Origin: Psammoneis japonica
Lineage: Eukaryota
Length of the DNA: 64,000 nt
Assembly: GCA_008632985.1 (NCBI GenBank)
Contig: QPGO01000036.1
Span: 186,001 to 250,000 of the forward strand
Direction of reading: 5' to 3'
A model generated the notes under the pieces. The model worked only from the letters and a program-made list of their open reading frames with translations. It was not told the origin of the DNA and did no database searches. Within the stretch, counting starts at the first letter, position 1, and each line of letters opens with the position of its first letter. Shown piece after piece: positions 5,751-44,500 of the stretch. Position numbers and translations under genes: made by a program.

Positions 5751-6425
5751 CATGCCTGGTGCACATTTTGTTCCAGAAAACACAAGTCGCGGGGTGGGAC
5801 CCACTGTCACTTGAACCTCGGTGCTTCAACAAAGACTGACTGCCACATCGTTTCAAGTCGGTGGTCGAACCGGGGCACAAAGGGTGCATTTCTATGATGA
5901 CAAAATGGAAGATAAAAAGCAACGTCAGCAAAGATGTCTCGAATGAAAAGAAAAAGACACGAAATTGACTTACGTTGGGGGTGCATTCGAGTGCAATGCA
6001 ACACAATGAGTGCACCCCATGTCATTTTGAATTGCATGACAAACTCGTGCAATGTTGGTGAGTCTTTGATGCACACAAAAGCTGCATTGCACCATGAAAT
6101 GGAAACGAGAAATGCCCCCATGCATGCTCAGTTTCCAATGGTCCAACACAAGCCGTCAATGAGCCCAGTGGAGAATCATGATCCTCGTGCACCACGGATT
6201 GGACATGGAAGACTGCCCGGCTCACCAACCTTGAGCTCAAAGGACAGTTGGTTGTCCTGTTCTTGCGAGACGCACCATACCGATCATCATTTCAATAAAC
6301 TCAGCATTCTCCAAATTTTGACCCTCTCCCACTGGAACAATTTCATGTTGCACTGACCCATTGTCCACAGGCTCTCCCCGTTGTCCATTGGTTCTTCCGC
6401 ACCCAGAGGATCATTCGAGACATTG

Positions 6426-8460
6426 TCAGGCTCCTCGATTGCATTCTCCACAACAGCAGGACTGCTTCCTCCATGCCATCAGTTCCTCATTCGCGGCTGC
6501 AGGTTTCTCACTCAAGGCATCATCAGGCTCCTTGATTGCATTCTCCACAACAGCAGGAACTCCTTCCTCCATGGCCATTGGCTCCTCATTCACAGCTGCC
6601 GGTGCAACCGGTTCCTCACTCAAGGCATCGTCAGGCTCCTCGACTGCATTCTCCACAACAGCAGGAACCACTTCATCCACAGCCATTGGCTTGTCATTCA
6701 CAGCTGCTGGTGCAACCGGCTCCTCATTCAATGCATTGTCAGGCTCCTTGATTGCACCCTCCACAACAGCAGGAACCACTTCCCCCATGGCCAGTTCCTC
6801 GCCAGCTTCAAGAACCAAAACAACTTCCTCCACGGCAATTGGAACGCCAATGCCAGCATCAGCCGGTTTGATGGCTGCTGGAGTCCGCACCTTCCATGCC
6901 AATAATCAACCTTGGATGCGCTTGACATTCACGAATGTGTCGGTCTTGAATGCGGTCAAACTCAAGCCATGCTGCTGCCAATTGCTGATCATTCAGGTGG
7001 GAACGATGCAGGTGCAAGTGGACGTGGATTCCTTGTGGAGAAGCCATGCCAGTTGGGACTGGAGGAGCATCGCCACGTGTGTGTCTTGAACCATCAAGTG
7101 GTCAGGTCTCCATCTGATGCGCCCATCTCTTGGAACAACAACAGCCTCGGCCAGTTCAATGGCTGCTGGAGTCCGCACCCATCCCGCCAATGATCACACC
7201 TTGGATGCGCTTGATGTTCACAAATGTGTCGGTCTTGAGTGCGGCCAAACTCAAGCCACGCCGCAGCCAATTGCGATCATTCAGGGTGGGAATGATGCGG
7301 GTGCAACGTGGGCGTCGGATCACTCGTGGAGCAGCCACGCCAGTTGGGACTGGAGGAGCATCGCCAACGTGTGTGTCTTGAACCATCAAGTGGTCGGGTC
7401 TCCATCCAATGCGCCCATCTCGTGGAACAACAACAGCCTCGGCCGGTTCAATGGCTGCTGGAGTCCTTGCCCATCCTCGCCAATGATCACATCTTGGGTG
7501 AGTTCGACATCCATGAATGCATTGGTTTTGTTTCGAGTCAAACTCAAGCAGCGCCGCAGTCAACTGCTGATCATTCAGGAGGGGAACAACCCGAGTGTAA
7601 CGTGGACATCGAAGAACAGGTTTAGCAACCACGCCGGTTGGGATTGGAGGAAGGTCACCGACAAAGACATTCTTGATCAGGTCTTCATCCGGCAGCCACT
7701 CTAAATGCCGCTGATGATGCTGCCGAGCCAGCTTGTCATGCTTCTCGTCGATTCGTCTCAGTGCAAAGTCCAACCTCTGATCCGACAGCACTGGAATCTT
7801 GGTCGTGTGCTTTGGATGTCGAAGAACTTTTGGAGCAGCCATGCTGGTTGGGACGGGACGATCGTGGGCACCGTACAGGTTCTGCAGTCCGGCGGGTCTC
7901 CATCTGACACGCCCGCGACAAAAGCATTTGCGTTGCAACAACAGCAGCCAAGGGGAAATAAACTGCAGTGTGGCGTGAACATGGTCCATACAACCACTGC
8001 AACCGCGAGAGTAGCCGCAACAGCATCGCACGCTGATCCCAGAGAAGAGTGGTAAGGTCGTCAATTTCCATAATTGGCGGTACAAGAAATAGACAGTGAT
8101 GCCAATCAACTTCAACAAGGAACATACAAACGCCATGGCGAGTAAAGCAAGGAGAGCTGTACAGACCGCAAGCACAAAGGACGCCAATTCCTCAATCATG
8201 CAGCGAATCTCGTCCACGGCAACGCACGAGAAAATCCACAATTCCCAAAGCAAACCGCTGACGATTCGGCCGTGGTTCTGCTTACCGTGAAATACACGTA
8301 GCAGAAGATTCATAAAGAGAATGAGTAGTGCAATGTATGCAATCATAATGGGGGTAATAGTATCAATAAAGATAGATTGGTATGAGTGTGTTTCAATGCA
8401 AGCAAAACTTGAAATTGGTGCGTGAGCGAGACGGTCGCTCGTTGTTGCGGCTTGCACCAT
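6426..8460 (-). pseudogene. Repeat-rich hypothetical gene: N-terminal hydrophobic segments, ~220-290-bp PxPTGxxxP repeats, and ~120-bp VPAVVENAxxEPDDAL repeats; frameshifted and TpA-mutated in its 3' part
   Basis: ORF 7156-8460 continues in fragments 6993-7190, 6859-7047 and 6426-6902. Tandem repeats are visible in both DNA and protein. Confidence 0.55.
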
Positions 8461-16624: not shown

Positions 16625-17049
16625 TCGATGCGCATGACCTTGCGGTCCGCCACACTAACTTCCGCACAGGGCGGGGGTGAATTGAGTGCAACTTCTGTGG
16701 CTAGCTGGCTAGATTAAGCTAATGCCAAGCCCATTGCACAACCAACTGTCCTCAAAGAACTCGTTTGGAGATGATGAAAAGCTAGGAAATGTGAAGAAAT
16801 GGTCAGTTCAAGGCCAATGATGGACAAAAAATGGCCAATCAACACATGGCAAAAACAACGGCTCAATTGAGTTTTTTGCTGGCACACTGCCATCGCTTCT
16901 TCTCGCTTCCGGGGCAGGGACCAGACTGGCGCGCATAGCAGGGTGCCCAGACAGGCCATGTTTGTTCCTTGCCAGGTGGCCAAATCAGTTGCCAGTGGTG
17001 TGCCTCCCCCACTTCAGAGGCGCAACCCGCCCCGCAGCATGTTTGCAGC

Positions 17050-18500
17050 GACTTGAGCTTGTGATGCACCACATGCCAGACACTTTGTCTTTCTGACAGG
17101 ACTGAGTTTGGCCCAGCAACCACCCCACCCCCCCTGCAGAGACCTGCAGAGACAAGAAGGAGCCAATTTGTGCAACAGCGCAAGTGCTCCGTTGTCTTGG
17201 GGCGGCTTTTGGCAGCTCCATTGTGTCCCAGGGGAGCCAACAACAACCATGGTTGGGAGGGAAGCAAAGGCTTTGTCTTGTGCCAATGCAGCACTTTGCA
17301 TCTCTGACTGGACTGGCTGGGTTAGGCCCAGCCTCCCCACCTGCTGCAGAGACAAGAAAACCATCTGTGCAACAGCACAAGCAAGTTCTCTGTTGTCTTG
17401 GGATGGCCTTGGATGACTCCATTGGGTCCCAGAGGACACAACAACAACAATGGTTGGGAAGCAAAGGCCTTGTCTTGTGTCAACTCAGCACCTTGTCTCT
17501 CTGACAGGACTGGGTTTGGCCCAGCCACACCCCACCTGCAGAAACAAGAAGAAAGCACCATTTGTGCAATGGTGCAAGTGCTCCACTGTCTTTGGACGGC
17601 TTTTGGTGACTCCATTTAATCACAGGAGTGCCAGCAGCAACAATGGCTGGGAAGCAAAGGCCTTGTCTTGTGTCAATGCAGCACCTTGCAGAGACAAGAA
17701 AGCCATTTGTGCAACAGTGCAAGTGCTCCATTGTCTTGGGATGGCTTTTGGTGGCTCCATTTAATCACAGGAGAGCCAGCAGCAACAATGGCTGGGAAGC
17801 AAAGTCCTTGTGTCAACACAGCACCTTGTCTTTTTCTGACATGACTGGGTTTGGTCCAGCCAGCCAGCCAACCTGCTGCAAAGACAAGGGAACCATCTTT
17901 GTGACAGTGCAAGCACTTGGTTGTCTGAGACTCCATTGGGTCCCAGGGAAGGCAAAAACAACAACTGTTGGGAAGGAAAAGCCTTGCCTTGGGCCAATGC
18001 AGCCCCTTTTTTTCTGATGTGAGACTGGCTTGCTTTGGCCCAGCCACCCCACCTGCAGAGACAAGGGAGCTTTCTGTGTGACAGCGCAAGTGCCCAGTCA
18101 TCTTTGGATGGCCTTGGTTAACTCCATTGTGTCTCAGCAGGGGAGCCAGAAACAACTGTGTTGGGAGTCAAAAGCCTTGAATTGTGCCAACACATCCCCC
18201 CTTTTCTTTCTCACATGAGTGGCTTTGGCACCACAGCCACCCCACCTGCAGAGACAAGGGAGATTTCTGTGTGACAATGAAAGTGCCCAGTTGTCTTTGG
18301 ATGGCCTTGGGTGACTCCATTGTGTCCCTGGGCAGCCAACAACAACCTTGGTTGGGGAGCAAAGACCTTGTCTTGTGTCAATGCAGCCCCTTTCTTTCTG
18401 TCATGACTGGCTTTGGCCCATCCAGCACACCCTTGCAGAGACCAGGGAGCCATCTGTGTGACAGCACAAAGGAGACTCCATTGGGTGCCAGGGGATGCAA
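17050..18500 (+). repeat. Tandem array of ~170-215-bp units (~8 copies)
   Basis: tttggcccagcc..cccacctgcagagacaag…caagtgc…ctccatt…aaggccttgtcttgtg recurs at about 17108, 17325, 17516, 17690, 17850, 18034, 18224 and 18413. Confidence 0.9.
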
Positions 18501-19449
18501 CAACAATCACGGGAATCTTGTGGCAATGCATGAGAAATTTGAGATCTTTGGGTGCAATGGAGACTGGATGAGAGTGGGGGTCATGGGCCACATTGGCACA
18601 GCGCTTTGTTGTTGATGGAGGCAGCAGCAGTGACAGAAATTGCTGGGTCAACAGCTGGTGCTGCAGCAGCTCTAGTGACAGAGCCTTGGCTTCTCTGAGT
18701 GCTCCTCCTGGTGGGCTCTTGTGGCTGAGGTTGAGCTTGAGATCTGCCAGCCCCACCTGTGTCACCTTGGCCAAAACCACCGCCGGTGTTGGAATGCTTG
18801 GCAGCACAAAGATGGCCACCACTGCCTCTGCAGGGGGGCAGCTCAATGTGTTTGGCAGTGTCATTGCAACACACCAAAAAGAAAATGTGGTTGTGAGGGC
18901 ATCAAGCAGATTGTGGAGATTGAAGTCCCAGAACATTGAAAAGATGGTGTGTGGCAGCAAGACACTGTGAAAATTTCCATCTTAACAAGAACACACCAAC
19001 ATGACAAAAAATGAGAAATTGCCCAACTGCAGACACACATGCAAAACTCATGACTTGATGATTCATTCAAGTCATTTCAAATCAATCAAACCTTCAAAAC
19101 TGAGTGTGAGTGTGGAATTTTTAAAAAACTGTCTTTTAAAACAGCAATGCCAACAGGAATTGCCAGGCAGACATGCTTGACATTGCCACAAGAACACAAG
19201 TCATCATTGACTTACAAGACACCACAAAACACAGGGCTCACCCAACATCATGACAATGACCACAGCAGCAAGGGAGGCAACAGAAGAGCAAGGGGGGGAC
19301 AATGCGGACCAACACCAGGTGAGAGAAAGGCAGGAACCAGTGGGAGTGCACAGAGCTCAGGCAACAATGCAAGCAACTGATGCTTTTGCCAATCTTTGAC
19401 TCAGACATGTTGACATGCAAGGAGAGCCAGAAGGGAAGACGTCCCTGCA

Positions 19450-19700
19450 GGGGTCACACAAAGGTGAGCAGAGTCAGCATTTGTCCCACCAAGCACATTC
19501 AAAAAAAGAACACACACAATGCTCTCATCTTCTGTGCACTCTTTTCTCTTTTTTGCAGGTGACACTTTTGCAAACCAGTGCAAAAAATGAAAGAAACAAA
19601 GTCGCACACAAAGGTGAGCAGAGGCGCCATTTGTGCCAAGCCAAGCCCACTCAAAACAAAAGACACACAATGCTCTGAACTGTTGCAAGCTCTTTTCTCT
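19450..19700 (+). repeat. Two-copy ~150-bp tandem repeat
   Basis: cacacaaaggtgagcagag…catttgt…acacacaatgctct occurs at ~19455 and ~19605. Confidence 0.75.
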
Positions 19701-22700
19701 TCTTTGCAGGCAATGCTTTGGCAAACCAGCATGATGAGCAAAAGAGACAAGGTCATGACATGGAACAAACAACGCAGCTGTGGTGAGCAAGTGCAGTTGC
19801 AAGGGATGGCGCAATGAGCAAACCATCACACCATCATGTGAAGACAGAGAGTGCTGTGGCACAGAAGCACTGGCAGGAGACAGGACAAAACCAAGGAGGA
19901 AAGAGCAAGAAACAGGAAGCACAAACACATTCACTGCAGAAATGACAAAACACAGCCAGCACAAATCACATTGCAAACAGCACACAGCCAATGCACAAGC
20001 ATCTCAATGAGATGAATGATGTTGCTGTTGTCAGAAATGAGAAATGTCAGAAAGCAGCTGCAATTGCACCCCCTTGTCAAGAACAAACAATTCATCAATT
20101 GTCATTTCCAGCTTTGCATGTTTGTTCAATTGTGGACACAAACCAAGTCATGTCAAAATTGTTGTGGCTGCAATCTTGTCAAGACAAATGAACAGTGCGA
20201 CACACAGATTGAGCATGTTTCCTGTTTGGAGTGTCAGAACAATCTTCAAATTTGCTTTGTTCAAATTGGCTGGCACTTGTTGAGAACCCAGGTTCTGATT
20301 TGGCACAGATGACTTCTGAACAAGAGCCACAACATTTTCAGATGCAACAGCTGTGCATGTGTGTTTTGCACTTGGTTCCACAGCACCACACTTCCTGCAG
20401 CACCAGCACTGGTCATCACAGCCCAGCCCAGGTGGAGCCACCAGTGTGTCATGCAGTGCTCTTTGGCTGTCCACCAAAGGAGCTTTTGCTCTCATTCCTC
20501 TGTCTGTCTGCCAACTCTGCATGACTTGATTCTGGTGAGTTGACTGCCTTGCATGGGAGAGGAGCTCTGAATGTGCCACTCTTCTCAGCAGCTGTGGCTT
20601 TGTGATCTTTGCAAAACTGTGGAACATCATGGGCTCCAGAGTGGACAGACTTGTGCAGAGGAAAACAAACCAACTGCTTCTGCATGAGATCACACTTTCC
20701 TTGCAAAACAGCAAAGAGAGCTTGCCTTGCTTGCAGATCACAGATCATGACATGTGTCAAGTCATTGATGATGAGAAAACCAGTCCACATGGGCTGGACG
20801 GCTCTCATGAGCATGAGCTCAAAAACAACACATGATGCATCTTTGAAGTGGGTCAGTCGTTTCTCCTCATCTCATTTTTGCTGTTCATGACACGTGTTGC
20901 CCAATGCCAAGTGCTGTGCCAAGCCAGTCACATCACACTGGTTGTCCCAGTTGCAAGAACAACAAGCTGTCTTTTTCTTCTCTTTTTTTTTTTATGTCAA
21001 CTGCACTCTGGGCATCATCCAGCATCTTCTTTTGCGTGTCCATTGTGCTCAAGGTGTTAGATTGAGAAGTGTGCCATCAATTGAAAACCTCAGCTCTTTT
21101 GTGGTTTCTGACTCACTTGTGAGAGTGATGAGGCAACATGCCCCCAATGTTTGACAGTGTGCTCACAGAAAACAAAACAGAAAAAGAGCACCTCATGTCT
21201 GGAGCATGCTGTGTGTTGGGCCTCTCAGGGAAGGAACCTGCTAGAGGAGCACCCAGATTGAGAAATGATGACCAGCCACATGCCCCATTTCAAGTTTTGA
21301 GTTTGAGTTTGGCTCTTCAACAATGGGGTTTGTTCTTCAGCAAAGAAAACAACTGACCCATGAGATTTTTTTATTTTGTCAATTGGACTGATTGGTGAGG
21401 GCCTGAAGCACTGTTCAAAACATGCCTCCTTCATGGCATGGCTCAGTTTTTGAGACAAATGGATCAGAGATGAAACAAAGCAAATTGTTGAAAAGATCAG
21501 GTCACATCCTTTGAAACATGGGTTGGTGTCTCAGCAAACTAAATTTTTACATGACTTTTTACAGCAGTGGTGGGCCAGCCATGATGCCATGGATTGTCCA
21601 CTTTCTTTTGCTGTGTTGTGGGAAAGTTGATGGTTTTTTGGTGAGCACACTGGTTGGCTTGGTTGGCGGTGTGGCACAACCATTGAGAGAGACCACCATT
21701 TTGACCACTTTTCTTGATGTTTTTGTTTTTGATGTGTGCTGTGTGATGCTGCTGCACCATCCTTTGATGCTGGGAGGTGCGCCGAAACAGGGATGTCAAT
21801 GTGTGACATTTTGACAACTCAGCAGGAAGGCAGTTTTTGAACAATCCATGAGGCTTTCTTGTGTTTCTGCAGCTGCCTCTTGTGCAAGAACAGCGCCACA
21901 CACTGTGCAAGAAATTGAGCTCTGAAGCAACAATGTCATTTTTTTCATGTCTTGCACTGCAGCCACAAGCTGTGCACATCAAAATGGTGCTGTGCACTGC
22001 TGCCTTAAATTTGCCCATTCATGAACCAACTGCCATCACAGGGCTGCAATGGCAAAATGTTGTGATGGGTCACAACTGCCTGCCTGCACTCAATGTGGTG
22101 CTTTGATTGAAATTTTGGGTTTTGCAGTTTCTGTGCTTTGTGGAGAGAGCCTTTCAACTCATGGCTTTTGTGTGTGGCACCTCACTTTACAAGCATTGTC
22201 AAGGAGGAGCACCATTTTGATGGTGCATCTGCTTTTCTTCAAGATGATTGATTGGCAAGGAGCAAGGTGATTGGCGCAGAGTTGTTTTTGACCAAGAACA
22301 AATTGCAGACATCTTGCTTCTTGCTCCTGCAAGATTTGGTCTGCATGTGCCATGCATTGCAGATAAACTTGAAAATGGTGTGCTGGGATGAAAAAGCTGT
22401 GCTCAACAAGATGCACATGGCCCACAAGGCCTGAATCTTCCCAACCCTGCCTCTCTTCCTGTCAAGCCCTTGATCATGGATTTGGACAGAGACATGGCAC
22501 TGGATCTCAAGACTTGGCTGCCCCAACAAGAGTGAATTTGATGTCAAGAACCACTTAAATTTTGACAGAAGCCCAACACAGAAGGATGCTTGAGGGGAAG
22601 CCATGGCCAAAAAATGGCTGGTTTGCAGCAGGAGGTCAGTGGATGCACAATGCGGTGAAGAGGGTGGCTGTGTGTCTTTTGGCTTGCACTGCACACGCAC

Positions 22701-24639
22701 AGTGCTGCTGCTCCAGAGGATGATGATGTCGGGAGTGATGGCAAAGTCATTGGCATGTCCACAGCAACAATCAGCATGATGACGCATCCTGCTCTGATGC
22801 TGAATTGATGCAGGAGACTCCCAAAGCTGGCAAATCCCAACCCAAGGTTCCACACAAGAGTGGAGACACTGAGCAGACTCACTTGGCAGCAGGACAAAGC
22901 AAGAGCAGACCTTGTTTTGCAGCAGCACTTAATCAACCAAGGGATGTCAAAGAATGGAAGCCCACAGTCTGCACTGGTGGTCTGCTCAGCGGCACTCAGG
23001 AAAACAGTTTGTCGGTGCTTGAGCAAGTGGTGAAATGAGCCACTGGTGGGCCAAAGCCAAACTTTTTGCTGGAGCATGTGAAGCCAGCTGCAGCAGGGCC
23101 AAATGAATGTTGCCTTCATCTTTCCAAGGTGCCTCGGATGTTTTGATGCCATCACCCAAAGGTGATGTGAGCCTCCTCAGAAAGAGACCTGTCAGGCCAA
23201 AGACAAGGACTTGACACACCTGTGAAGTCTCACAATTTTGATCAGTTTCTCTTGTTGAAACAATGGGTTTGCAATGTTTCACACATTTTCACAAAATTAA
23301 TTGATTTTTGGTGATTGGACATTTTGACAAATGATGTTGTGGTGTGACACCCTTGCAGCTCTCTTTGACAATTCCGTCATGCAAAAAGCAAACCTTTCTT
23401 CCTTTGCGAACAAAATCTCAGCACAAAAGACCACACAATTCACAATGCTTTCACAATCAATCAAATCCACAATGTGCAAACAAACATGAGATGCAATTGC
23501 TCCACCCAGGCCATTCCAATGGAAGCCATGGGCCAAGCTCCAATGACATGAAAGACTTCCAAGGGGAGGGAAAAAAGAAGGTGCCAATGGATGCAGTGCT
23601 TGACATTGCATGCAGCTTTCAAGAATCGGGAGTCCTCCGAAACGCAATGGCATCCGCTCGCTCAGGTGACTGCTGTTCCGAACAAGCACGACACCTCCGG
23701 TGTGCACTTGCTTGACAAATTGATGAACTCAGCCACCTTGGGATCACACTCACCATCCAAAGGCAGTTCAAGACCATCATTTTTGAAGGATTGGCTGGAG
23801 CTTTCTGGATGGTTGCCAATTCGCATGGGTGCAAATGAATCAAGGCTGCTCCAGTGTTGGAATGAACACTCCCAATGCAATCACTTAGCAAGTGTCATGC
23901 AACGCATTGCAGCCAGTCTTTGAATGAATGCCTCTTGTCAATGAGTGCTTGGGTGACAAGAGAAAATGCCCAAACAACAGGGAGTGTGTCCCGCTGCTGT
24001 GGTGGCGGTGCTTCTAGTCTTGGGGAGAGTGGCGACCAAGGAAGCAGTCATTCTTCTTCCACGCTGGATCTCATGCTTCAAAACCTCTGCCCAAAGACCA
24101 TTTGTGTCCCAAGGAAAAGTTGAATGAACTCACACTCCAAGCCTGGTCATTCCTTGTTGTTTGTGGAGCACTTTGCAGCCCAAAAATCTTTGGATGCATG
24201 GTTGCAGACACCTTTTCTGGCGTGAAGAGAGAGTCCTCAACCAAATGCTGCATCCTTGAAACCACATCTGATCATTTGTGATGACAATGAAGTGAGTGCA
24301 GGTCTTGACATCAGCTCCAGTCCTGAGTGGGAAGTCAGAGAGCAAGTCGCATTGCACCGCATCATCCGCACTGTCATTCCATCCCACCTTTTTAACTGAC
24401 CATTGACTGACACTTGTTTCCACTTTACTCCACAACCACAGTCCACAACTGAGCAGTCCACTCAACATGAGCCATCTGCCGTTGCATCCACTGGTGCTGC
24501 AACGGAGTTTCCTTTTGACAAAAGCAACTCATTTGGTTTGGATGAGGATCACATCCAAGCAGTGGCCACCCCTGCAGTGGTGTCAACGGCGCAAGAATCC
24601 CTCACAGTGGATGACCGTGCCTCTGAGACATTGTTGGCA

Positions 24640-26010
24640 TTGGTGTCTTCAGAGCAAGAGATCCTTTCTGACGTGAGCAATGAGAGCCTTCCAGACCAGC
24701 ATGGTGCAGAGGGGCTGTTGGTCCACACAGAACAGGGGCAGAAGAAGCAGAGCACGTTCAAGCACCCACCTCCCTCATTGTGCACAGCAGTGCTTTGTTC
24801 CAACTTGACTCAGAGCAGCTTTGGGAAGCGCGCGTGTTCTTTCCACTGATGGGCAAACTGTTCAAAGGTTGCCAGAATCTTGAATCATCAAGGTGGTGCA
24901 GCGGGACAGTTTGAGTGCTTGCGGGAACAAAAAATGCCCGCAAAGAGAGAAGAGCAGGAGTCAGAGAGAGACACAGAACAGAGAGAGGAGCAACTTGGAG
25001 AGAGAGAGAGAGAGAGAGAGAGATGGGGAGCAGAGCACACAGAAAAGAGAAAGCGTGATTTGCAGAGTCCCAGAGAGGTTGAGAGAGGAAGAAAATGAAT
25101 TCAGGGAAATGGCGAGGCAAGAAGAAGATTGATTTTGGCAAGGACTGCAGGCAGCAACCTCCACTTGCTTTTGCTTGCTTCAGTGGTTCTGCGTGGATGA
25201 GTTGAGTCTGGCAGCAAGCTTTCTGACCACATTCAGCTCAGTGAGTGTGAGTGATCAAGATCCTGTTGCTTTTGTGTGCAATGATTGGCAAGTTTTGGGT
25301 GAGCAGCGACATTCTGTTGACAGAGCAGAATCTTCATGGCACCTGCAGTTTGGCACATGTCATGCACAACACGCACCTTTGCATTCGACATTTCGGATTC
25401 AGCTTGAGGGGTTGAAACCTTGAACGCAGACTTGACATTCCATTTTGGACCAAAAAGCACCATTTGTGGTGGACAGTGTGCACTTGGAGTGCAGACAGAT
25501 CCAGTCTTGTTTCTGCAATGAAGCACTTGATGATTTTAACACCTTTGCCAGTTGGAAGGTTTTCTTTGGGATTTCACAAAAACAGCATGGTTGTGTTGGG
25601 AACATTTTGCAGGGCACCGGTGCAGAGAGTTTTCAAGCTCCTGCATGTTCAATTGCGCATGGTGGAAACTTGCCTTTCACACTCACAACATGGCCTTTGT
25701 AATTCAGTGTGTGTTCCAGCAAGCACAGCCCTGTGAAATTCTTGCGTTTCCATCTCATTGTCAACCAGTGCCAACAGGTGCAACAATGCTTGGAATTTGC
25801 AAATTCTTGTCAGCATCCCTTGCTTGCAATGGCTTGATCAAGAATCTGTCAATGTTTCTGTCAGGGTTGAAAGCAATGTGACTTTGTCAGGATGTCATGT
25901 GTGCAGAGAGTTTTGAAGCTGCCAGCTCAAATGTGCTTTGAAAGCTTGCACCTTTGCACCCAACTTGCACAACAGGCTTTGTTCATTCAGTTTCTAGCCC
26001 ACCAAGCATT
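24640..26010 (+). repeat. Dispersed repeat, copy 2, interrupted by a ~380-bp insertion (24829-25206) containing a GA microsatellite
   Basis: Inverted homology to 4720-5750 breaks after gcagctttgggaagc and resumes at tctggcagcaagctttctgaccacatt. Confidence 0.8.
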
Positions 26011-29000
26011 TAACTGTTTTGCAAAAGGCATCCTGATTGATTGTTCCTCAGAACACATCTTGCCAAGATTCATGCTGTGTGGTGGTGGGCAAGCTGGATC
26101 TCAATGCATTGTTCTTTGGCACAGTAATTGATGGGGTTGCATTTGAAATGGATGTTGACAAATGACACATCTGAGAGGCACTGGGCAAGAGAAACATTTG
26201 CAAGCCATCACCCCTCCCAATGCATCATTTTCATGCCACTCACAGCAGCTCACAAAGCTCCCTGACCTTGCCCTCCTTAGAAATCAAGCAAACTGTTGAC
26301 AAATGATCGAACAAATGAGTGTTTGTCCAGAATGAGATGTTGAGGCAACACACCAGGTGCTCGCATGCCGCATCATCCAATTTCCAGAATGACAAGGATT
26401 GATTTTTTGTGATGCTGCGATTGGATCACAAATGAAAAACTGAGGTGAGAGGCACACTCGATCAAAGCTGCAACATCTTAAGCAGCACTGAATTCAGCAA
26501 AAGTTGGCATGTTCAGAAAATCACACAACCAAGGATGCCTGCTGGAAGTTGGGAAGAAGAAGAGTTGGCTGCATGCAACATTTGACCAAAAGACACAATG
26601 AGATATTGCAACCTGTGGGGCTTCTTCCAAGTGGCCACTTGCAACAGATCCCATGTGAGACATGTCTCTCATCCTCATTGAGTGTGGTTCCCATCCATCA
26701 GTTCAATGAGTCTGGCAGTCCAGCAGCAGTCAGCAGTCCAAAAAATCAACAAGCTCGGCAAAGGGATCGGGATCTGACGTCACAACGCAACCAATCAGCC
26801 AACCATGTTTGGTTGTCAGTCTTACATGGTCTCTGGGGCCCTGTGCATGAAAACAGATGAGTGAAGGGAAATCATTTTTTAGAGTGCAGGCCAGAGCCCA
26901 TTTTGAATTCTTTGCTTCATCTGGAGTGTGCAGGAGTTGTTGGATCACCAGTGCCTGGCGCAAAGTTGCAATGAAATGCGCGCAATGACAGGACACAAAT
27001 TCTTGCTCTGGCAGAGTCCAACATCCCTTGTTTTGGCTGAAAACCCACCCCATCCACATGAGTTTGCAGGATGGAGACTGAGAGACAGAAATTCAATGGC
27101 TGATCCAGCGTGTGAGCAAGTCCTTTTGAACAATTTCTCATGTTTCTCAGCAGATTCAAAAACAAATGGTGCCAACAAAAAAATGCCATCACTTGGTCAA
27201 TTTGGACAAGTGCTGGTGCTTGTTTGCAAGAGCCTTTGTTTCTGCAATCTGTGGTTTGATCATTTTCATCATTTTGTCATTGAGCCGGTGTGGTTTTGGG
27301 CTTGCATCCCTGCCAATTTCATCTTTTCCCAGTGGCTGGATGACTCCACATGGCACCCAATGTGGTCAAGCCACTGGGATTGGATGAAGTTTGATCCATG
27401 CAGATTTGTGCAAAAGTTGTTGTAGACAATGAAGACTGGGTGCAGTGGGTGTCAACCAAGTCTTGTTTCTTGTTCTCGATGGCTTTTTTAAGTTTCCACA
27501 TGGCAATGATTTGAGAGGAAAAGTCCAAAAGAGAGAGAGACAGGATTTCAAAATTGTGTCTGCAGCATGGATCCAGGTTGTTCTTCAGGAGATGCTGACA
27601 TGTTGCCATTGGAAATGTTGCTGAACAAAAAGATGATGATGCACACAAAGGTGCATGAGGTGCTGTGATTGAGCTGCATGGGAGGGAGTTTGCTGAGAAT
27701 GATGAGTTCAAAAAGACTCCTGAATGAGCATGGTTTGTTTGGTTTCTCATGTTTGGTGCAGACTTCAATTTCTCATCAATTTAATTGTCAAGAAGCCTCT
27801 CATCTGGGAGTGTCATGATTGTTGCTGCAGTTTCAACTCTGACACATTGTGCTTGCTCATTGCTGGGTGTGGACTGGGCTCAGACAGTTGACAAGCCACT
27901 CACTTCTATGAACATGTGCTGGTTTGTTGCCAACAAGGTGCTCTTCTTTGTTGACTTGACACCAGCTGCAAAGAGTCTTGGTGGTGCACTGGATTGTTTT
28001 TGCATGCACGTGTGCACTTTTGGCAATCTCATGGGTGATGACACCATTGCTTTGGTGATGGTGAGAGATCAAGAAGCACCCATTTTGGCATGGACAAAGA
28101 AAGAGTGACTCTGTTTGCTGTGAGGGTGTGCAACAATTGGGAAGCCCACAGACACACAAAACAGGCCTCATGTTGTGAAAAGCAGAACAACGACTTTGGC
28201 AGCGCCCCAGCTTCCCCTGATGGCTGTGATTTTGCCTGTTTCTGCAATGCAGAAATTTGTCATGGGGAGTGTGAGACAATGAAGAAGCCTGTGCACAAGT
28301 GTGACAAGCTTTGTGTTGCAAACAGAGCAACAGCAGGTGAGTGATGGCTTGGTTTTGTGGTCACACTTTGCTTTGTTGTGAGGCAGAGATTCTCTTGTTT
28401 GCCACCACCGCTGCCTTTGGCTGGCACTTGCTTGTGCCAACATCAGCCAACATTGTCAAGCACACTTTCAAGCAGTGGATTCAATGAAAATGGTGCTGCT
28501 GCACAGGAAATCCTAAATCTGAGGAGCTGATGCATTGGCTGACAGTTGCAGGTGCAGTGCCAGCATGAAAAATGATGAGACATGGGCTCAGTTCTTGAAG
28601 AAGTGCCCCTCACCGCCAATGGTGCTGTTTGCTTTGAACGTCAAGCTCCATTGTTTTCCAGATGCCAATTTTTGCCCTCTTGGTGAAAACCACTTTTTGC
28701 CAACAGTGCAAAAGAAAGTGTGCCAGGCAGCTTTTGAGGCAGCCCCTTTGTGGGTTGGAAACACCAAAAAACTCAAAGTGAAGCTCAAAAGTGCTTCCCA
28801 GGGAGGTGATGCAGTGTTGCTGCACTTGCTGTGCAAACAATGGGAGGGGGTGGAGCTGAGGCTGGCTGCCCCCCATGTTGTCCTTGCTTGCCACTCCTCA
28901 TGCCCAAAATCTCTCTTTTGTGGTGACGAGAGTGTCCTTGCTTCCTTGCCGCAACTTTGCCATGCACTTTGGCTGGGGGGCACAGCCTTGCCTCTGGGCT

Positions 29001-30739
29001 CACACAGTGCAGCCAGACAACCCCCACCCCCTTTTCCCACATTGTTGCTGCACTCACAGCAGAGAGCTCTCGCAGCTCTTGGAAAGCTCTCCCAGCATTG
29101 TGCATGCAAGAAAAGATGAAGGGGGGGAAAGAAAGAGACAGCCAGTGCACAGGAAAGAGCAGCTGTTGCCACCACTCTGACAGCTGCTTGCACACCTTCT
29201 TGGCATCACTTGCCTGCACCTGGGCACCAGCCAGCAGATCCCACCCTTGAGCCAAGGCAGGCTGTGTGGTGCTCTGTTGCATTTTTTCTGTTGTGACAGG
29301 CTTGCAACACAACTGCCAACAAAAGCACAAAATTCTCAACCAATGCCCTTCAGAGCTGCACAAATGACAATGTGCATGTCATCAACAGCGTGGGCCTCTC
29401 TCCAACAAACAATGTCTCTGTCACCTGGACAACACAGCTGCTCTTGTCAAGAGTTGAAAAACTTGCTTGATGGGAAGCCTGTGCATTGTTGTCAAGTGCT
29501 CCTTCATTGTGAACAAATGGCTTTTCACAATTGACTGAGTTGGCAAGTGGGGCCAGACTTCTTGAGGAAGTTTGGTCTCACACCAGTGCATGGGCTTTGA
29601 CAAGACTCATTTTGAACTTCTTGGCCACAGTGCAACAAGCAACTGCAAATGAAACATGGCTCATTTTTTTGCATGCACACTCAAGACAATCTCATCATCA
29701 ATTGTTGTTGTTGTTGGCTGGAGCATGCTGACAATTCGATTCATTTTTTTGTCAAACGGGTGAATTTTGCAATTTTGGCTTCTTCTGACAATGTTCACTT
29801 TCTGCCCTGGCTGGCAATTTTTGACTTTTGGCACATTGCTCTTGTTCCACACTGTCACTCTGTTCCTTTGCTCCCTCTGTTCTTTGAGCTGCTGTCCCTT
29901 TGTCTCTTGCAGCAGTCTGTCTTGCACATTGGTGGTCTTGGCTGTGCTGGCATTGCACCTTGTTCCAATCTTTTGTGCTTCAAAAAGAGTCAGTTTTTGT
30001 GACAGCTTTTCTCATTGTGAGATGTGGCAGCAATCCCTGGCAGAACAGCAGAGAAGTTGTCAGCTTGGCATGTTTTCTTTGGTGCATGGCACAATCATGC
30101 TGCTTTTTCTGCTTGCCTGTGTGTGATGTTGCAGCACTCAATTGACTGAGTTTCAAGAAATCAACAAAGAACAAAAGAAAGGCACATCAATTTGTTGTTT
30201 GCTGCAAGCAGCCTGCTCCTGCACCACACTTCTGACCTCTTGTCTTTCCCACAGCTTTGTTTGTTGGTGTGTGCAGAGTCTGGGTTTTGTTGGTGCCTTC
30301 CTGCAATGTCATCATTCTTTGTGCATGCTGCTGCTTGGGTGCCATCCTGCATTTTGTGTTGCTTTGTGTGTGGTGGTGATGTGCCTTTTTGCACTGGCTG
30401 GTGATCATTGCCTGTGTCCTTTTGCAAGTGTTTTTTTTTAACAGCCTTTTGTCACAGGTGTTTTGAAGTTTCAAGTCATTTGAGTCAACCAAATGAATTC
30501 ACTGATGGTCTCATTGCCAGTGCATTTTGGTTGTGAGCTGTCATTTGTTCAGCAGCTGGGTGTTGAAAATTGTTTCAATCAAATGCAGCAGCCATTCACA
30601 TGGGAACAACAACCTTGTTGCTGTTGTGTTCTCAACATGGTTGAAACTTGCAGGGAGGAGGTCAGAAGAAATTGCAGTGGAGTGGACTGCACAGGTGAGT
30701 GTGGTTGCAGACAGAGGCAACTGTCTCCAGCAAGTTGAT

Positions 30740-31740
30740 GCAGACATGTTGAGCTTCCCAGCTTCAGAGCGAAGTGGCCCCATGATGGCACCAGCCAACT
30801 CAACAAGCCACAGCAGGCTGAGAATGTTGGTGGTCTCTGGCAGACCCCAGGTGGGCCCCAGGTGACACTCTGGGAGCTGTGGTCAAGCACTGCTGAGCAG
30901 CAAAGGCCAGCACCGCTGTGCAGTTGTGGTGACCTGTCATGTCTGCCCAGCTAAAAGAACACTTCAAACTCACAACTCCAGAATGAAAAAACACCATGAT
31001 GTCACCAACCAACCTGACAACAACAAGCTGAGAGCATTGGTGGTCTGTTGTGGTTCCCAGGCAATGCTGCAACAACTGTGGTTGAGCAGTGCAAGAAGGC
31101 CTGCTGTCTTGTGTGGTTGTGGCCCCATGTCACCTTGTCACACAGAAGGAGCAGACTTGAACTTCCCAACTCCATGGTGACAGGGCCACATGGAGGTGCC
31201 AACCAATCCAACAGTTGCAGGGTGAGGACGACACCTGTGACATCTGGCAAACCACAGGCAAAGGCCCAATGTCACCTTGTCCTGGCAGCAGCAGACTTTT
31301 GAACTTCTAAACTCCAGAGTGAAAGGACCCCATGGTGGTTTCAACCAAGCTGAAAATGGCAAGCTGAGGGCACTGGTGGTGTCAGGTGAACCCCAGGAGA
31401 GACTGTCAGAGCTGTGGATGAGCATTTTGCAAGATTGATCTGGTGTTGTTGTGGCCCCATGACACCTTGTCCTCAACAGCAGCAGAGACTTGACTTTTGC
31501 AGCAATTCCAGAGTGAAAGAGCCCCATGACATTGCTGACAACAGCAAGCTGAGGACATTGACCATGTCTGGTGGGCCCCAGAGGAGACTTTGTCAACAAC
31601 TGAGGTTTGGTGCTGCAAGGTTGAGCTTGTGGCATTGTGGCCCCATGTGACCATGTCCCAACAGCGCCAGACTTGACTTGCTCCCCCAACTCCAGAGTGA
31701 AAGGACCCCATGACAGCACCAACTGAGCCAACCTGAAATT
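30740..31740 (+). repeat. Tandem array of ~140-215-bp units (~6 copies)
   Basis: aactccagagtgaaagg.ccccatg…caagctgag…gtggccccatg.caccttgtc…gcagactt recurs at about 30750, 30970, 31165, 31310, 31505 and 31688. Confidence 0.85.
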
Positions 31741-33832
31741 TGAAAAGCAATGCACTGGGAATGCCAGAGACATGGAGAGGGTTTTTGCAGTGGCAAAATG
31801 GCTTGAGGAGAATGATGAAGAGTTTCAGCTGCTTTTTGAAGCAAGTTTCTTTTTGTTGGAAGCAGCAACATGAAGAACTGTGACAAGCAGACAGGCCATC
31901 TTCCTTTTTACCCTGATCTAAAACTCAAGCAAGAGTGGATTTGTGAGAGGGCTGGCTGGGATGTGAGCCAGAAATGTGAAACCAAGCTTTCTGGTTCTTG
32001 CAAGCCACACAACATTTGGAGACTTGCAGCCCTTGTCAAGCTTTCTGCCATGGGGCTGTCAAGTTGGCCTTTGCAGCTGATCTTGTTGGCAGCACAGTTG
32101 TTGCAGTGTGTGGCTTCAATTGTTTGTGCTGCTGACCTTGCACAAAGTGTCAACATCAAATGAGTTTTCTGTCACCACCAGCACCTTGGCTGCAGCTGCC
32201 ACTCATGAGTCTGGGTCCCAGACTTGGGCGCTTGGACAACACTCACCCTTCTCTCTGAGCAACAAGCAAATTGGTGCATGCACTTCAACAAGCATGATGT
32301 CCAAACCACCCTCTGCAATCTTCTTTGAGAGACAAAACTGGTGCATTCACTGAGCAACAAGGGAGGGCTGCCAGACAATCACCAGCAGAAATTCTCTGCC
32401 ACAGTCGCCACAGCCAGAAAACAGAGTGCAATGCATGCACATGGAACAGGAGCAACAAAAACACAAAATCAAATTGCAGCAACATTGGCTCTGATGACTT
32501 GGCACCCCAAAAAGTGTTCGCAGCACATTTGTTGTCAATCAACAGCTTCAAAGAGGTGTTGAGTGAAGCAAAACTGACCCACACTGTGGCCTGAGTTGAT
32601 GTTGGAATTTGTCAAAGTGCAATGTTTTGACAAGGTTGAGAGTGGCTGCACAGGCGTTTTTGGATGAGACACAACATTTTTTGCGCCCAGTTCTTCACAG
32701 CGCATCTGGACATTTGTTGTCTAAATTCTAGCACAGCATGCTGAAGGTCATTTTCAGGCTCACTCATCAAACACTTGTGCTCCAGCACCTTCCACATGAG
32801 ATTGCATTTGAGCTCACAACCCAGTGTCCTGGCTCTGCTGTCATCAGATCATGCAGCAACAGATGGGGTCAACTTTGCCACAAATCTTGTTTTGCTCATC
32901 ATTGTGAGCAACTGCCTGCAGTTCAGAGGTGACAAATTTGCTGAACAAACAACAAACAAGACATGGGTTGACAACTTTGATCATCTCCAGACCATGCAAA
33001 AGGCAGTGCAAGCTGCCAAGTTCTTGGAGTTGGTGACAATGACAAATTTTCTTGACAGGGCTAAAACTTGAACAAGAACACTTCTGAAATCTGAATGTCA
33101 CAAAGGATGCTCAAATTCTTGGGAATGTTTTGACAAGTGAGTTGACAACAAATTGCAACCTGGCCATCCAACAAGCCTCCATGTTTGATTCATTAGCTTC
33201 TACCTGTAATCTCATTGAATGACAGTGCCATGTGCTCTTTGATCCCTGTTGTTCCTCTGCTGCAAACAGTTCATTCAGGGTGCTTCTCCACTGCCAGGAT
33301 GGCAAATGTAAACTGCAGTCCTTGCCACTGCAAACAACGTGGTTCTCTTGCAATTCTTTGCATAGCTCCAGCTCATTGGTGGGTCAAGATCCTCATCATG
33401 TGCCTTGTGATCCTCGTCATATGTGCCTGCATGGAGGGACTGCCTCTGCTACGTGAGATGGATGATGGACGACAGTACGGACAGAACGACAACTAAAATC
33501 CATAGATGTGATGCTGAGCGACGCCTCGGAGTGATGCACACATTTCTCAGAACAAAACGATCTCTGCAGAGTTTTTGCTTAACAGAAGCACTTAGTACCC
33601 CACACCAATGACCGTCTAAATCTACCTTTTCAGTCACTGCTGCAGATGGAGCGAACAAGACAAGCCTAGAAAGATCACACTTTTGGCAATTGGAATTCTA
33701 AAGATATATGCTGACGATGCTACAATACTTGAAATTCATCGAAATGTTCAAAATCGATAGTTTTTCCGGAACTACTTGTTTCCAATGCACCATTTATTGC
33801 TAACCCATGATTGAAACTTCCCCCCTTGTGGA

Positions 33833-41510: not shown

Positions 41511-44500
41511 CTACCTCCTTGACTGCTGTCTCTTTGGGCAATCCTTAGAATGTGCGGGTCGACCTCTTGGTCGGCACCCCGCCACACTGTAGCTTTGCTG
41601 CAGCTTGCATTGTAGGAAGACAGGACAACAGTACGGGTCAATGTCCTGCTTCCTTTGATCCCGTATCGGATCATTAAGAATTGAAAGAGCTGGTTGCACT
41701 TGATGTGGAACAGATGGGAGGGCTGCACTCATGCTCGATGCAAAAGCAAGCTGCTGTGATAGGGTGCTTCTCATGGCCTGCAGCATGTTGAACTGCTTCT
41801 CGACTTGAACATGAGCCGCATTAAGCAATGGAGTGTCATCCATACACACAGGTTCAACCACCACCTCGGGAGCCATCGCAATTTCCACAACACCACATGT
41901 AGGTTCAACGGTTGTCGCCGCTGCGGTTTCCTCGTCGTCACGGTTTCCAGCTTCTGATCTTGTTGTTCGCTTGTATGGATTTACGACCGGTTTTGTCCCA
42001 CAGAGATTGCACATACATCGATCTGTCTCGGGGTGTGGAGCAATTGTTTCATTTCTGGCATTCTGCTCCAGCAGGTACTGGGACAAGAAACGCTCGCCGG
42101 TGTCCCCCTCGAGTTCCCTCACATGCGGATATGGTGCTTTCTTCCCCTTCTTTAATGCAAGGTTGTTGACTTCAATTAGATCAAGTACATTCCGATGAGT
42201 AACCACACCCCGAAAGTCATATGGAATCTTGGCTCGCGCCGTTGCATCCATTTTCTCGATTCGCTCCTTCTCTTCGATTGTTTCATTGTACAAAACTAAT
42301 CCCTCCAAAGTAAGCAAGTCCATCAATGAATGTCTCATTCCACAATTTCCATAATGTGCCAGTGAATCGTGTGCCTTCTCCAATTTGGATTCGGGTCCTA
42401 GTGGCGTTCGCCACTTCACCAGTTTTGCTTTCGACCGCAGGGACGGCGCTACAGGCCAGCACTGCTCCGACTTCGGCACTGGAGTGTCCAATCCCTTCGA
42501 GGTTTCTTTAGCATTCAAAACTGCATCCTTTGTGTCGGTTGTAAATGGCGACAGTCCACTGTCTGGATCTAGACGCCCTCCAGCAGCGGGGGCTCCGTCA
42601 GAGGCAGTACACTTGTATCGAGCAAACCAATCCTCGAGCAACGTGAGCCTTTTCTCCAGCGGGTGCCTCCAGAGACGAATGCATTCCTGGTAGTGCTTCC
42701 ACCTTGAAGAGTGTATGATGTCGTGTGTCTCCTCATCAGAATGCTTCTTGTTGTTTAGCGTGCCATCCTTCAAGGCTTGTATCACAGCTTGGCGGTCGGA
42801 CCATTCGGCATATGATGCGGTTGCTTTGAGATCACTGACAGCTTGCCAATAATCAGCATGTTCTTTTCGGAGCGTTCTTGCAATTCGGTGCATCCAATGA
42901 AAGAGCCCAAGGAGACAGATTGTGTTCATTCCGAATGTCGTCTTCCACAACTCCGACTTGTTCGGCCAGGTGTCGCTGCAGTGGAGTTTTGGGCGTACGT
43001 TCTTTCGCCTGGCAAACTGTTCTGCCGCGTGAGCAAAATCTTTTGCTTCCAATGTTGGGGTTGGGCAAGCGGTTCCCACCTGCCCCTTTTCGTTGCACAT
43101 GGTGAACAGGCCTGCTGCTCCGCCTGCTTTCTTTGAGCAGTTTTTGAGAATTTGAAAAGTGTGGTCGGATGCGACGCTCACGGCGGCTCCAACCATCTGC
43201 AACAATCTCGTGCACCTGTCACACGAGGACGTGTCAAGAGCCGTCAATTTCGATTTGCCAGATTCGTCATAAAGATCAAGAAGTGCTGAGGGTGATGGGC
43301 TGCACCCGCCCATCCAATCCTCGAAAGACACCCACTCTTCGCTTTTGTCGATGGCTCGGCAGTGGTGCTCTTTCTGGAGGTCCACGAAATGGGCGGCTCG
43401 CATTTGGTGCAGCATGTGCGAGAACTTGTCCCCATTTGCGTGCGTGACAATAAAGGACTCAAGGAGTCTTGCAGTTTCCTTGGTGAGATGCCACTTGTTG
43501 CTTGCACTAGCATGCTCAGGCAATGTTGGACATGCTGACTGCAGGCTTTTTGGCAGCTTGTGCAGAAGTCGACCGTCGTCACCCTTGCATCGAATTTTGC
43601 ATTTGTTGCATTCGTGCCACATTGACACCGCCACACGCGTCTTCCCGCTGATGCAATGTGTTGGTGTCGCCCCACCATGTCGAGCAAAGTCCGTACGATC
43701 ATGAATCATTTCCCCGTCGCACTCTCCGTCAATGCAGGAGAGATAGATGTTAGGACAGTTCAGCTCCCAACAAACGATGCACACTGTCATGCCTTGCAGC
43801 TGATGGCAGCAACAATCAGGCGGTGAAGTGCAGTCATCCTTGGGAACTTGAAAAGACATTGCACCAGGAGGAAAAGCACCATCCTTGACCTCCAGAATCT
43901 CATTGAGCTTGGGGCTTTTTGCTGCAGCAACAGGACACTTGTTGCTGCCTTGCTCGAATCTCGGCTTGACAGAATCCAACAGACAACTGACAAGAGCACT
44001 CGCTGCAGCCGGGCACTTCGTCCTCTCCTCTGAGTTCTCACACTTTTTCACGTGTGCTCGAATCTCTCGTTTCAAAGTCTCAACCGAAAATTTAGCATCA
44101 GTGGCCGACTTGTGGGTATTCTCGGCGCGCTCCATGGGGCCTGCAGCATCAGCCACCCCCGAATTCACCGGCTTGCATGTGTTGGCAACACCTGGAGGAG
44201 GCAACACAGCTTGAGCTGCAGGTTTCTGTTTTCCAAAATGGTCTCGTATGGTTGACACTCCCTTTTCTGGAGCATCCGGAATCGTGTTGTTTGTTTCGTG
44301 AAGCTCTTTGTCACGTCGCTCTGCATCCATGGTGGCTTTGGTGACGTTCACTTGCAAGTGCCTCTTTGAAAATTTGCATGTGGGATCATGGCCATGATGA
44401 CATGTAGGACCTTTGTCACATCTCTTGCATGTCTTCGTTCCGTCGTCTACTCTTGGCACCTTGCGCCCACTAAAATCGCTCTGATGCGTCCGCTTCTGGC

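Follow-up and report, generated by a model that had tools for sequence, protein, structure and literature searches.

We analysed a window of 64,000 nucleotides from the diatom Psammoneis japonica (assembly GCA_008632985.1, contig QPGO01000036.1, positions 186,001 to 250,000 of the forward strand), in which four discrete domains, named A to D, are nearly devoid of the dinucleotide TA (TpA). The largest of them, domain B, covers 16.4 kb. These domains, the repeats and genes in and around them, and similar segments found in metagenome loci are listed in Table 1; positions in the window are counted from its first letter.

Table 1. Features of the window and erased segments of metagenome loci
Feature	Position	Strand	Description
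Domain A	3170..8000	.	TA-erased block, CpG loss partial; TA 21 vs 305 expected from base composition
Domain B	16800..33190	.	16.4-kb TA-erased, CpG-poor, TG/CA-rich block; TA 50 vs 1113 expected
Domain C	42850..44640	.	TA-poor block within the 5' 60% of a repeat-family open reading frame (ORF); TA 16 vs 101
Domain D	53640..56620	.	TA-erased, CpG-poor block; TA 7 vs 200 expected
P0121	41514..44660	-	1049-codon ORF of a large uncharacterised diatom repeat-protein family; straddles domain C
Tandem repeats in domain A	within 3170..8000		periods of about 600, 108 and 290 bp
Tandem array, left end of B	17081..18506	.	unit of about 195 bp, copies 66-76% alike
Smaller tandem array in B	19455-19729
Internal repeats in B	30974-31715		within the multi-copy part 29815..32484
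Tandem repeats near right end of D	55795-56575		unit of about 170 bp
Shared repeat, copy in A	4770..5750	+	about 1 kb
Shared repeat, segment of B	24639..25969	-	inverted relative to 4770-5750 of A, 73-81% identity
Multi-copy part of B	18601..20202	.	summed k-mer depth 482-1200 in X1
Multi-copy part of B	29815..32484	.	summed k-mer depth 243-1107 in X1
JmjC/cupin-like protein gene	11069-12232	-	normal TA content
ORF with weak MazG-like match	33836-34696	-	650 bases from the edge of B; normal TA content
FCP-type light-harvesting gene	35100-35882		1.9 kb from B; PF00504, E = 7e-32
Histidine phosphatase gene	36110-36946	-	normal TA content
640-codon ORF	37320-39239	+	Fic/DOC (E = 2e-14) and RING finger (E = 3e-7)
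Metagenome locus L012	about 1500-2500		erased segment
Metagenome locus L021	11001-12500		erased segment
Metagenome locus L031	about 3500-5000		erased segment
Metagenome locus L051	entire locus		erased segment

The domains were confirmed by a 1-kb scan of all 16 dinucleotides and by exact counts. Expected numbers were computed from base composition or, for TA, also from the observed/expected ratio (o/e) of 0.63 in the background, that is, in the 38,006 bases of the window outside the four domains. The TA content is reduced to o/e 0.07, 0.04, 0.16 and 0.03 in domains A, B, C and D, respectively. At the background ratio 192, 701, 64 and 126 TAs would be expected, and the deficit in domain B has a Poisson P of 2e-227. 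A first-pass annotation of the window had described the same four domains, with about 50 TAs in domain B by eye; all four were recovered, and the exact count is 50. It had overlooked the loss of CG that runs parallel to that of TA. The numbers of observed and expected CGs are 123 and 938 in domain B (o/e 0.13), 36 and 171 in D (0.21), 156 and 298 in A (0.52), and 93 and 120 in C (0.78), compared with o/e 0.97 in the background. TG and CA are in large excess, as that annotation had noted: domain B contains 1870 TGs (o/e 1.79) and 1854 CAs (o/e 1.85), against 1.17 for TG/CA in the background, and the pattern in the other three domains is similar. Of the dinucleotides that it had called abundant, AA indeed shows no depletion (o/e 1.18-1.31 over the four domains), whereas AT is moderately low in domain B (o/e 0.75). 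The G+C content of domain B is unchanged (0.479 versus 0.470).

The blocks are discrete, and the adjoining genes have normal TA content, in agreement with the first-pass annotation. The edges of domain B are sharp within about 150 bases. On the left, TAs are dense until position 16783 and the next one occurs at 16936; on the right, the final sparse TA is at 33062 and dense TAs resume at 33194. The leftmost 400 bases of the domain (16800-17203) are TA-free and retain 13 CpGs, whereas the rest of it has about 7 CpGs per kb; thus the left edges of TA loss and CpG loss do not coincide exactly. In domain D, the TA-sparse run extends from 53693 to 56649. In domain C, TA o/e per 300 bp is 0.06-0.25 from position 43014 on and 0.34-0.49 elsewhere in the ORF. 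A weaker TA-poor stretch was observed at 50243-51048 (1-kb TA o/e 0.28, TG+CA 1.35). Next to it, within the ORF 50863-51519, is a tandem array with units of about 170 bp (50964-51276). The stretch may be a fifth, partly converted block.

The four pyrimidine-purine (YpR) dinucleotides TA, CG, TG and CA together make up 24.35% of all dinucleotides in the background and 24.6, 23.8, 24.4 and 25.9% in domains A, B, C and D, so their total is constant while their proportions change. We simulated such a conversion by randomly changing 93% of TAs and 86% of CGs of the window background to TG or CA, 50 times. The simulated ratios of CA (1.86) and TG (1.88) are close to those observed in domain B (1.85 and 1.79), the simulated G+C content is 0.465 compared with the observed 0.479, and the squared misfit over the 16 dinucleotides decreases from 2.14 to 0.18.

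The direction of the conversion can be seen in P0121, the ORF that straddles domain C. Its codons 1-604, encoding the N-terminal part, are TA-poor. An exhaustive HMMER search with the protein produced 893 relatives at E <= 0.001, most of them about 1000 residues long and 30-38% identical; 206 of the relatives reach E <= 1e-30. The named family members come from Cylindrotheca closterium and a metagenome-assembled genome of Bacillariaceae and, together with the FCP-type light-harvesting gene near domain B, point to a diatom, probably a pennate one, as the source of the window. A word-based protein search with P0121 gave no match. We aligned P0121 with 35 long relatives and considered the columns with tyrosine in at least 30% of them. 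Tyrosine codons TAY have two one-step products of TA to TG or CA, namely TGY (cysteine) and CAY (histidine). At the 18 tyrosine columns of the TA-poor part, P0121 has six cysteines, six histidines, two tyrosines and four other residues. Where tyrosine occurs in at least 69% of the relatives, eight of nine columns are cysteine or histidine. The 16 tyrosine columns of the TA-normal part contain four tyrosines, three cysteines, two histidines and seven other residues.

The same replacements dominate among all conserved positions. In the TA-poor part, 84 of the 127 columns conserved at 60% or more are kept, and tyrosine to cysteine and tyrosine to histidine (four each) are the commonest of the 43 substitutions. 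In the TA-normal part, 74 of 103 conserved columns are kept; tyrosine to cysteine occurs once among 29 substitutions, and no other change of tyrosine to cysteine or histidine was observed. At 19 columns where at least 50% of the 150 listed relatives have tyrosine, P0121 has nine cysteines or histidines, and the median relative has none. As a control, 18 further family members have cysteine at one tyrosine position in total. The protein of C. closterium retains tyrosine at 23 of 30 positions, with no cysteine and one histidine, whereas P0121 in the same comparison has five tyrosines, five cysteines and seven histidines at 29 positions. Intact relatives are thus not equally TA-free; they keep tyrosine, those from diatoms included, and normal TA. 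The TA loss is, judged from these alignments, mutational and not a native composition. It should be noted that conversion of TA to TG or CA never creates an in-frame stop codon, and therefore the open frame of P0121 is no sign of selection.

Several public predicted proteins of the family also have cysteine or histidine at conserved tyrosine positions, in particular P0270 (seven of nine), P0200 (seven of ten) and P0224 (six of 11). Hence erased copies have been annotated as genes in public data. In the series P0270, P0200, P0224, P0212, P0190 and P0182 the share of replaced columns goes from 7/9 down to 7/19, and tyrosine makes up 0.3% of all residues of P0224.

The family contains conserved motifs, including DHT.E..KNY and MYSDTWP, which suggest an enzyme, possibly an undescribed transposase. 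In Pfam the sole match is DUF6729, sub-threshold and in one of nine proteins. The AlphaFold model of P0122 is poor (mean predicted local distance difference test score, pLDDT, 54), and Foldseek detected no similar structure in PDB at E <= 0.001. A wide VIA search yielded only matches to helical bundles, at Z <= 7.5 and for residues 583-720.

The erased letters are also seen in a public DNA run, and independent support comes from metagenome contigs. We compared positions 18601-34600 of the window with k-mer contigs from a public DNA run (X1). Of the 870 aligned pieces, 147 match the window at 99% or more and 170 at 95-99%. Within domain B the word depth of the pieces is 35-46, with 2-14 mismatches per 340-560 bases, and in a flank contig of 6747 bases a single letter in 1120 deviates; such depths require accurate reads. 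A search for the P0121 family in JGI/ENA metagenome contigs produced 55 loci, none of which is similar to the window at the nucleotide level. Four of them contain 1-kb windows with TA o/e 0.02-0.08, TG+CA 1.67-1.85 and CpG 0.21-0.61 (Table 1), and in one of these, L051, none of 23 tyrosines is kept. Over the 54 loci with at least eight testable tyrosine positions (one locus, with six, was dropped), the share of cysteine and histidine at these positions increases as TA o/e decreases (Spearman -0.49, P = 1.4e-4). Several of the 55 loci have SPAdes-style NODE names, which suggests short-read assemblies. Accurate reads do not restore TA at the erased sites, as both X1 contigs and metagenome contigs of other species carry the erased letters. 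On this comparison the erasure is evidently not a sequencing artefact.

Copies of one repeat were resolved differently at the same sites. In five copy-versus-copy alignments within the window, CA/TG is the commonest dinucleotide mismatch (55 cases), and there are 320 transitions and 176 transversions. It is also the commonest dinucleotide difference in the repeat shared by domains A and B, with 31 cases in 935 aligned columns. The copies within domain A differ by 34 CA/CG and 17 CG/TG pairs, which show CpG decay apparently still under way there. X1 contigs of at least 85% likeness differ from the window by transitions at 557 places and by transversions at 223. Among 40 listed of the 781 X1 differences, eight form four adjacent TG/CA pairs, four change a residual CG of the window to TG or CA, one changes a residual TA to TG, and two are TA where the window has CA. 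Since TA and CG form about 9.8% of dinucleotides, and half of them would be resolved differently at a cost of two letters each, we estimate that saturating conversion alone makes two copies about 10% different. The stretch 23430-23853 is covered twice in X1, by contigs that are equally deep (35.8 and 35.5, the sum being about the single-copy depth) and differ from the window at four and 42 positions. They could be alleles about 10% apart or, equally, paralogues; if they are alleles, homologous chromosomes would mutate independently. The first-pass annotation had proposed A-to-G transitions at TA on either strand. A mutational conversion of TA to TG or CA on both strands, limited to discrete repeat-rich domains, is supported by the tyrosine replacements, by the constant YpR total together with the simulation, and by the CA/TG differences between copies.

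We consider it probable that the blocks record targeted TpA to TpG/CpA hypermutation of silenced repeat DNA, acting on the DNA itself, together with a separate CpG decay. The blocks would be silenced repeat or transposon-derived DNA of this pennate diatom. Locally targeted hypermutation would convert the A of 5'-TA-3' (A:T to G:C), whichever strand it is on, to near saturation. A slower, separable loss of CpG to TpG or CpA would occur in the same blocks, the simplest source being deamination of 5-methylcytosine in methylated transposon DNA. Both losses would feed TG and CA and cancel each other in G+C, so that base composition stays normal. Tyrosine codons, TAA and TAG stops, and any TA-containing signal would be destroyed. 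Of this reading, the sequences establish the conversion with its direction, the symmetry of the strands, the context rule described below, the sharp limits of the domains, the recurrence in other diatom-type contigs, and the independence from CpG loss.

A process of this kind has been described once, in an unrelated alga. Mettrop et al. (2026, bioRxiv 10.64898/2026.01.13.699255) report TpA-specific hypermutation of integrated DNA of nucleocytoplasmic large DNA viruses (NCLDV) and virophages in Bigelowiella natans. According to this preprint, 231 of 302 new single-nucleotide mutations in 15 mutation-accumulation lines occurred in two integrated viral regions. Of these 231, 230 changed A to G or T to C, without exception at TpA, and they arose about 1000-fold faster than the background rate. 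There are 124 clusters of TpA-poor, CpA+TpG-rich windows in that genome, the TpA-depleted coding sequences are enriched in transposon-type domains, and the authors propose an ADAT2-like deaminase. The first-pass annotation, which knew of no described eukaryotic repeat-silencing system with this signature, is thus superseded on this point: the preprint documents the very same signature, emerging de novo. From the 211 mutations, 6169 TpAs and 3132 generations given there, we roughly estimate a rate of 1e-5 per TpA per generation, at which 95% erasure would take about 3e5 generations.

The two cases are alike in that only TpA is hit, becoming TpG or CpA depending on the strand; in that discrete blocks are affected next to normal neighbours, the blocks being non-host or selfish DNA in B. 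natans and probably also in the diatom, where repeat origin is established for parts of them; and in the long-term footprint of TpA-poor, CpA+TpG-rich clusters. The diatom process would be the same as that of B. natans. On the other hand, B. natans is a chlorarachniophyte (Rhizaria) and P. japonica belongs to Stramenopila. The mutations of B. natans are live, with Rho 0.45 in the active NCLDV region, whereas the diatom blocks are in a near-saturated end state (TA o/e 0.03-0.16). The targets are viral inserts in the former, and tandem repeats and a repeat-protein family in the latter. Diatoms, CpG and the flanking context go unmentioned in the accessible text of the preprint, which likewise does not report the lower susceptibility of TAA and TTA described below. 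In the open-access and bioRxiv literature we found no report of TpA loss or A-to-G repeat hypermutation in diatoms; the other matches concern repeat-induced point mutation (RIP) of fungi.

The surviving TAs have a distinct context. In the four domains, 70 of 93 of them are within TTA or TAA, compared with 648 of the 1684 background TAs (odds ratio 4.9, P = 5e-12). With V standing for A, C or G and B for C, G or T, the survival scaled by length is 0.03 for VTAB (23 versus 1036), 0.12 for both VTAA (25 versus 307) and TTAB (23 versus 273), and 0.47 for TTAA (22 versus 68). We described these numbers by a strand-wise model with two rates for 5'-TA-3', k before C, G or T and k' before A. The survival of VTAB and VTAA gives k'/k of about 0.23, and with this ratio the model yields 0.45 for TTAA, compared with the observed 0.47. 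The products behave likewise. TTAB yields mainly TTGB (gain of 12.7 per kb, against 3.1 for TCAB), and VTAA yields mainly VCAA (9.7, against 4.1 for VTGA), whereas for VTAB, where no preference is expected, VTGB and VCAB gain 21.6 and 22.6 per kb. The base preceding tyrosine codons that became histidine is not T in seven of eight cases. Both strands are hit equally: TG and CA number 1870 and 1854 in domain B, and cysteine and histidine occur six times each at the tyrosine columns. No strand-coordinated runs of TG versus CA beyond the background were observed (runs z -1.83, controls from -0.66 to -2.85). The hypermutation would therefore act strand by strand and recognize at least three bases, with 5'-TAB-3' converted about four times faster than 5'-TAA-3', and, as TAB is faster than TAA, TTAA survives best.

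The same targeting could arise if T were attacked, for example an oxidized or otherwise modified thymine of the 5-hydroxymethyluracil type made by a TET/JBP-like enzyme, which subsequently pairs wrongly with G or is replaced by C in repair. As TA is palindromic, every sequence result fits this possibility equally well, including the context rule (here a T that follows another T is disfavoured) and the asymmetry of products, and dinoflagellates reportedly replace much of their thymine by 5-hydroxymethyluracil. However, there is no sign here of such a base or enzyme in diatoms, and 5-hydroxymethyluracil normally pairs with A. Deaminases of tRNA A34, on the other hand, have a fixed U-before-A context. 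The authors of the B. natans preprint also favour adenine deamination, and we regard attack on T as unlikely.

Given hypermutation aimed at the A of TpA, adenine deamination by an ADAT2/TadA-like polynucleotide deaminase is a tentative candidate for its chemistry. Enzymes of the ADAR and TadA/ADAT types likewise change A to G with T or U directly 5' of the edited A. However, they act on RNA, whereas here genomic DNA in place must be or become the substrate. No deaminase gene was found in the window. Error-prone synthesis of the Pol eta type, with its WA bias, was another chemistry proposed by the first-pass annotation; it is unlikely, as AA is not depleted (o/e 1.18-1.31).

The loss of CpG is separable from that of TA. 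Each of the four domains has lost TA more deeply than CG, and TA may be lost while CG is nearly intact: TA o/e is 0.16 with CG 0.78 in domain C, and 0 with 0.81 at positions 1501-2000 of metagenome locus L012. CpG decay cannot remove TA, and therefore CpG loss cannot be the whole signature. Its extent does not follow that of TA loss, so that CpG loss probably is a second process, of the ordinary kind. Deamination of 5-methylcytosine, presuming that the blocks are methylated, accounts for the conversion of CpG to TpG or CpA and for its slower and more variable progress, but neither for the removal of TpA nor for the greater depth of TA loss. Diatom transposons are methylated at CpG via DNMT5a, according to a published study (PMC9998398), and such methylation would alone suffice for the CpG half of the signature.

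A single polynucleotide deaminase of dual specificity could attack both the A of TpA and the C of CpG within one and the same targeted chromatin. TA and CpG losses do share domain edges in B and D, and the preprint refers to reports of ADAT2 enzymes that deaminate A as well as C in DNA. However, the degrees of the two losses are uncoupled (TA/CG 0.16/0.78 in C, 0.07/0.52 in A, 0/0.81 in L012), the relevant context is 3' of C for CpG and 5' of A for TpA, and the changes described in B. natans are almost exclusively from A/T to G/C. Besides, the methylation of diatom transposons (PMC9998398) by itself predicts CpG decay. One enzyme for both losses is thus improbable, somewhat more so than attack on thymine.

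Very improbable is ADAR-like A-to-I editing of double-stranded repeat RNA followed by reverse transcription and reinsertion. ADARs are metazoan enzymes not known outside animals. The erased blocks include satellite-like tandem arrays and stretches of no recognizable coding capacity, one block ends as a gradient within an ORF, and block edges coincide with adjoining single-copy genes. A preference for 5' U/T and symmetric products are indeed reminiscent of ADAR hypermutation, a likeness considered in the discussion of the preprint; still, the B. natans changes reported there arose in situ, in an insert present as a single copy, while the cells grew vegetatively. A native avoidance of TA and CG, evolved for instance against a TA-cutting nuclease or TA-targeting transposon insertion, can be practically dismissed, since highly conserved tyrosines are replaced by exact one-step products, intact relatives keep tyrosine and normal TA, the extent of loss is continuous among copies, and the same site is resolved as CA in one copy and TG in another. 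Nanopore consensus sequences have systematic transition errors at methylated motifs, but miscalling of a modified heterochromatin base by a long-read basecaller is equally implausible: X1 k-mer contigs with word depths of 35-60 have the same letters, metagenome contigs of other species, several of them NODE-named, contain blocks of the same type, and public predicted proteins carry the tyrosine replacements (7/9, 7/10 and 6/11 in P0270, P0200 and P0224).

The preferred reading, TpA hypermutation of silenced repeats with separate CpG decay, resembles RIP of Neurospora and other ascomycetes in several respects. Both consist of transitions in duplicated or selfish DNA at a particular dinucleotide, have sharp limits and destroy coding capacity. 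However, the direction is opposite: RIP changes CpA to TpA and increases A+T, whereas here TpA is removed and CpA gained, with G+C at 0.479 versus 0.470. RIP is premeiotic and triggered by homology, neither of which is known for the diatom process. RID, a factor of RIP, has relatives in many diatoms, the DNMT4 enzymes, whose function is given as unknown in PMC9998398.

The first-pass annotation had called all domains repeat- or transposon-derived. This is shown for tandem repeats in domains A, B and D, for the segment shared by A and B, for the parts of B with multi-copy depth, and for the repeat-family ORF in C. In X1, the single-copy flank has a summed k-mer depth of about 60, and the middle of domain B (20203-29814) has mostly 50-140. 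Repeat origin is therefore established for parts of the blocks and plausible for the remainder.

Several observations weigh against the preferred reading or limit it. About half of domain B has approximately single-copy depth at 85% or higher likeness, and 30 stop-to-stop ORFs of B, scanned against Pfam at E <= 0.01, matched no family, in particular no transposon or viral domain; repeat targeting is thus presumed rather than shown. The five cysteines and histidines at the 16 tyrosine columns of the TA-normal part of P0121 mean that the domain edge within this ORF is a gradient and not a step. After the simulated conversion, domain B still departs from the expected AT (0.75 versus 0.95), GC (1.26 versus 1.09), TT (1.33 versus 1.14) and also TC, and the ancestor used both here and for the context analysis is the genic background, a mere stand-in for the true ancestor of the repeats. 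The context rule is based on 93 surviving sites and is weakly reproduced in the four metagenome segments, where 27 of 45 survivors are within TTA or TAA compared with 42% (P = 0.02; the same direction, but a weak effect). As TA is palindromic, attack on A and attack on T leave the same sequence. The sequencing technology and library of X1 are without record, and the run is possibly from the sample of the assembly itself. All evidence consists of end states, no de novo event having been observed. Finally, no C-to-T hypermutation was seen in B. natans, whereas CpG o/e is 0.13-0.78 in the diatom domains; given this loss, the two cases may not represent the same process.

Although the kind of process is already known from B. 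natans, as far as the accessible text of the preprint shows, its occurrence in diatoms, including environmental relatives, is new, as are the saturated footprint, the strand-wise preference of TAB over TAA, and the separable CpG decay. If the preferred reading is true, a second major algal lineage has targeted A:T to G:C hypermutation against selfish DNA, and a single-species curiosity becomes a candidate for a widespread eukaryotic genome defence. In the diatom, the process may serve as genome defence. More tentatively, diatoms and chlorarachniophytes, and perhaps protists of the SAR group in general, may share a vegetative defence by adenine deamination in DNA, guided by chromatin or homology and aimed at 5'-TAB-3' on each strand. 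As a mirror image of RIP, it would remove all tyrosine codons, TAA and TAG stops and TA-containing signals from selfish DNA within about 10^5 generations. As G+C is untouched, genome surveys based on GC content would then have missed it.

The saturated footprint yields a strand-wise trinucleotide rule that is binding on any candidate enzyme, and base-editing research would have an interest in a naturally occurring deaminase of DNA adenine whose context is defined. Some diatoms can be manipulated genetically, and transgene arrays in diatoms might undergo the same process. There are also consequences for annotation. GC-based RIP detectors are blind to TpA erasure. Homology-based transposon annotation fails on erased DNA, as seen from the 30 ORFs of domain B without Pfam matches. 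Since TAA and TAG are gone, gene predictors call long spurious ORFs.

The genes flanking domain B are ordinary (Table 1). The nearest one, 650 bases from its edge, has a weak MazG-like match, and the FCP-type light-harvesting gene at 35100-35882 has its best matches, at 70-76% identity, in proteins of diatoms (Cylindrotheca, Staurosira, Entomoneis, Nitzschia and others).

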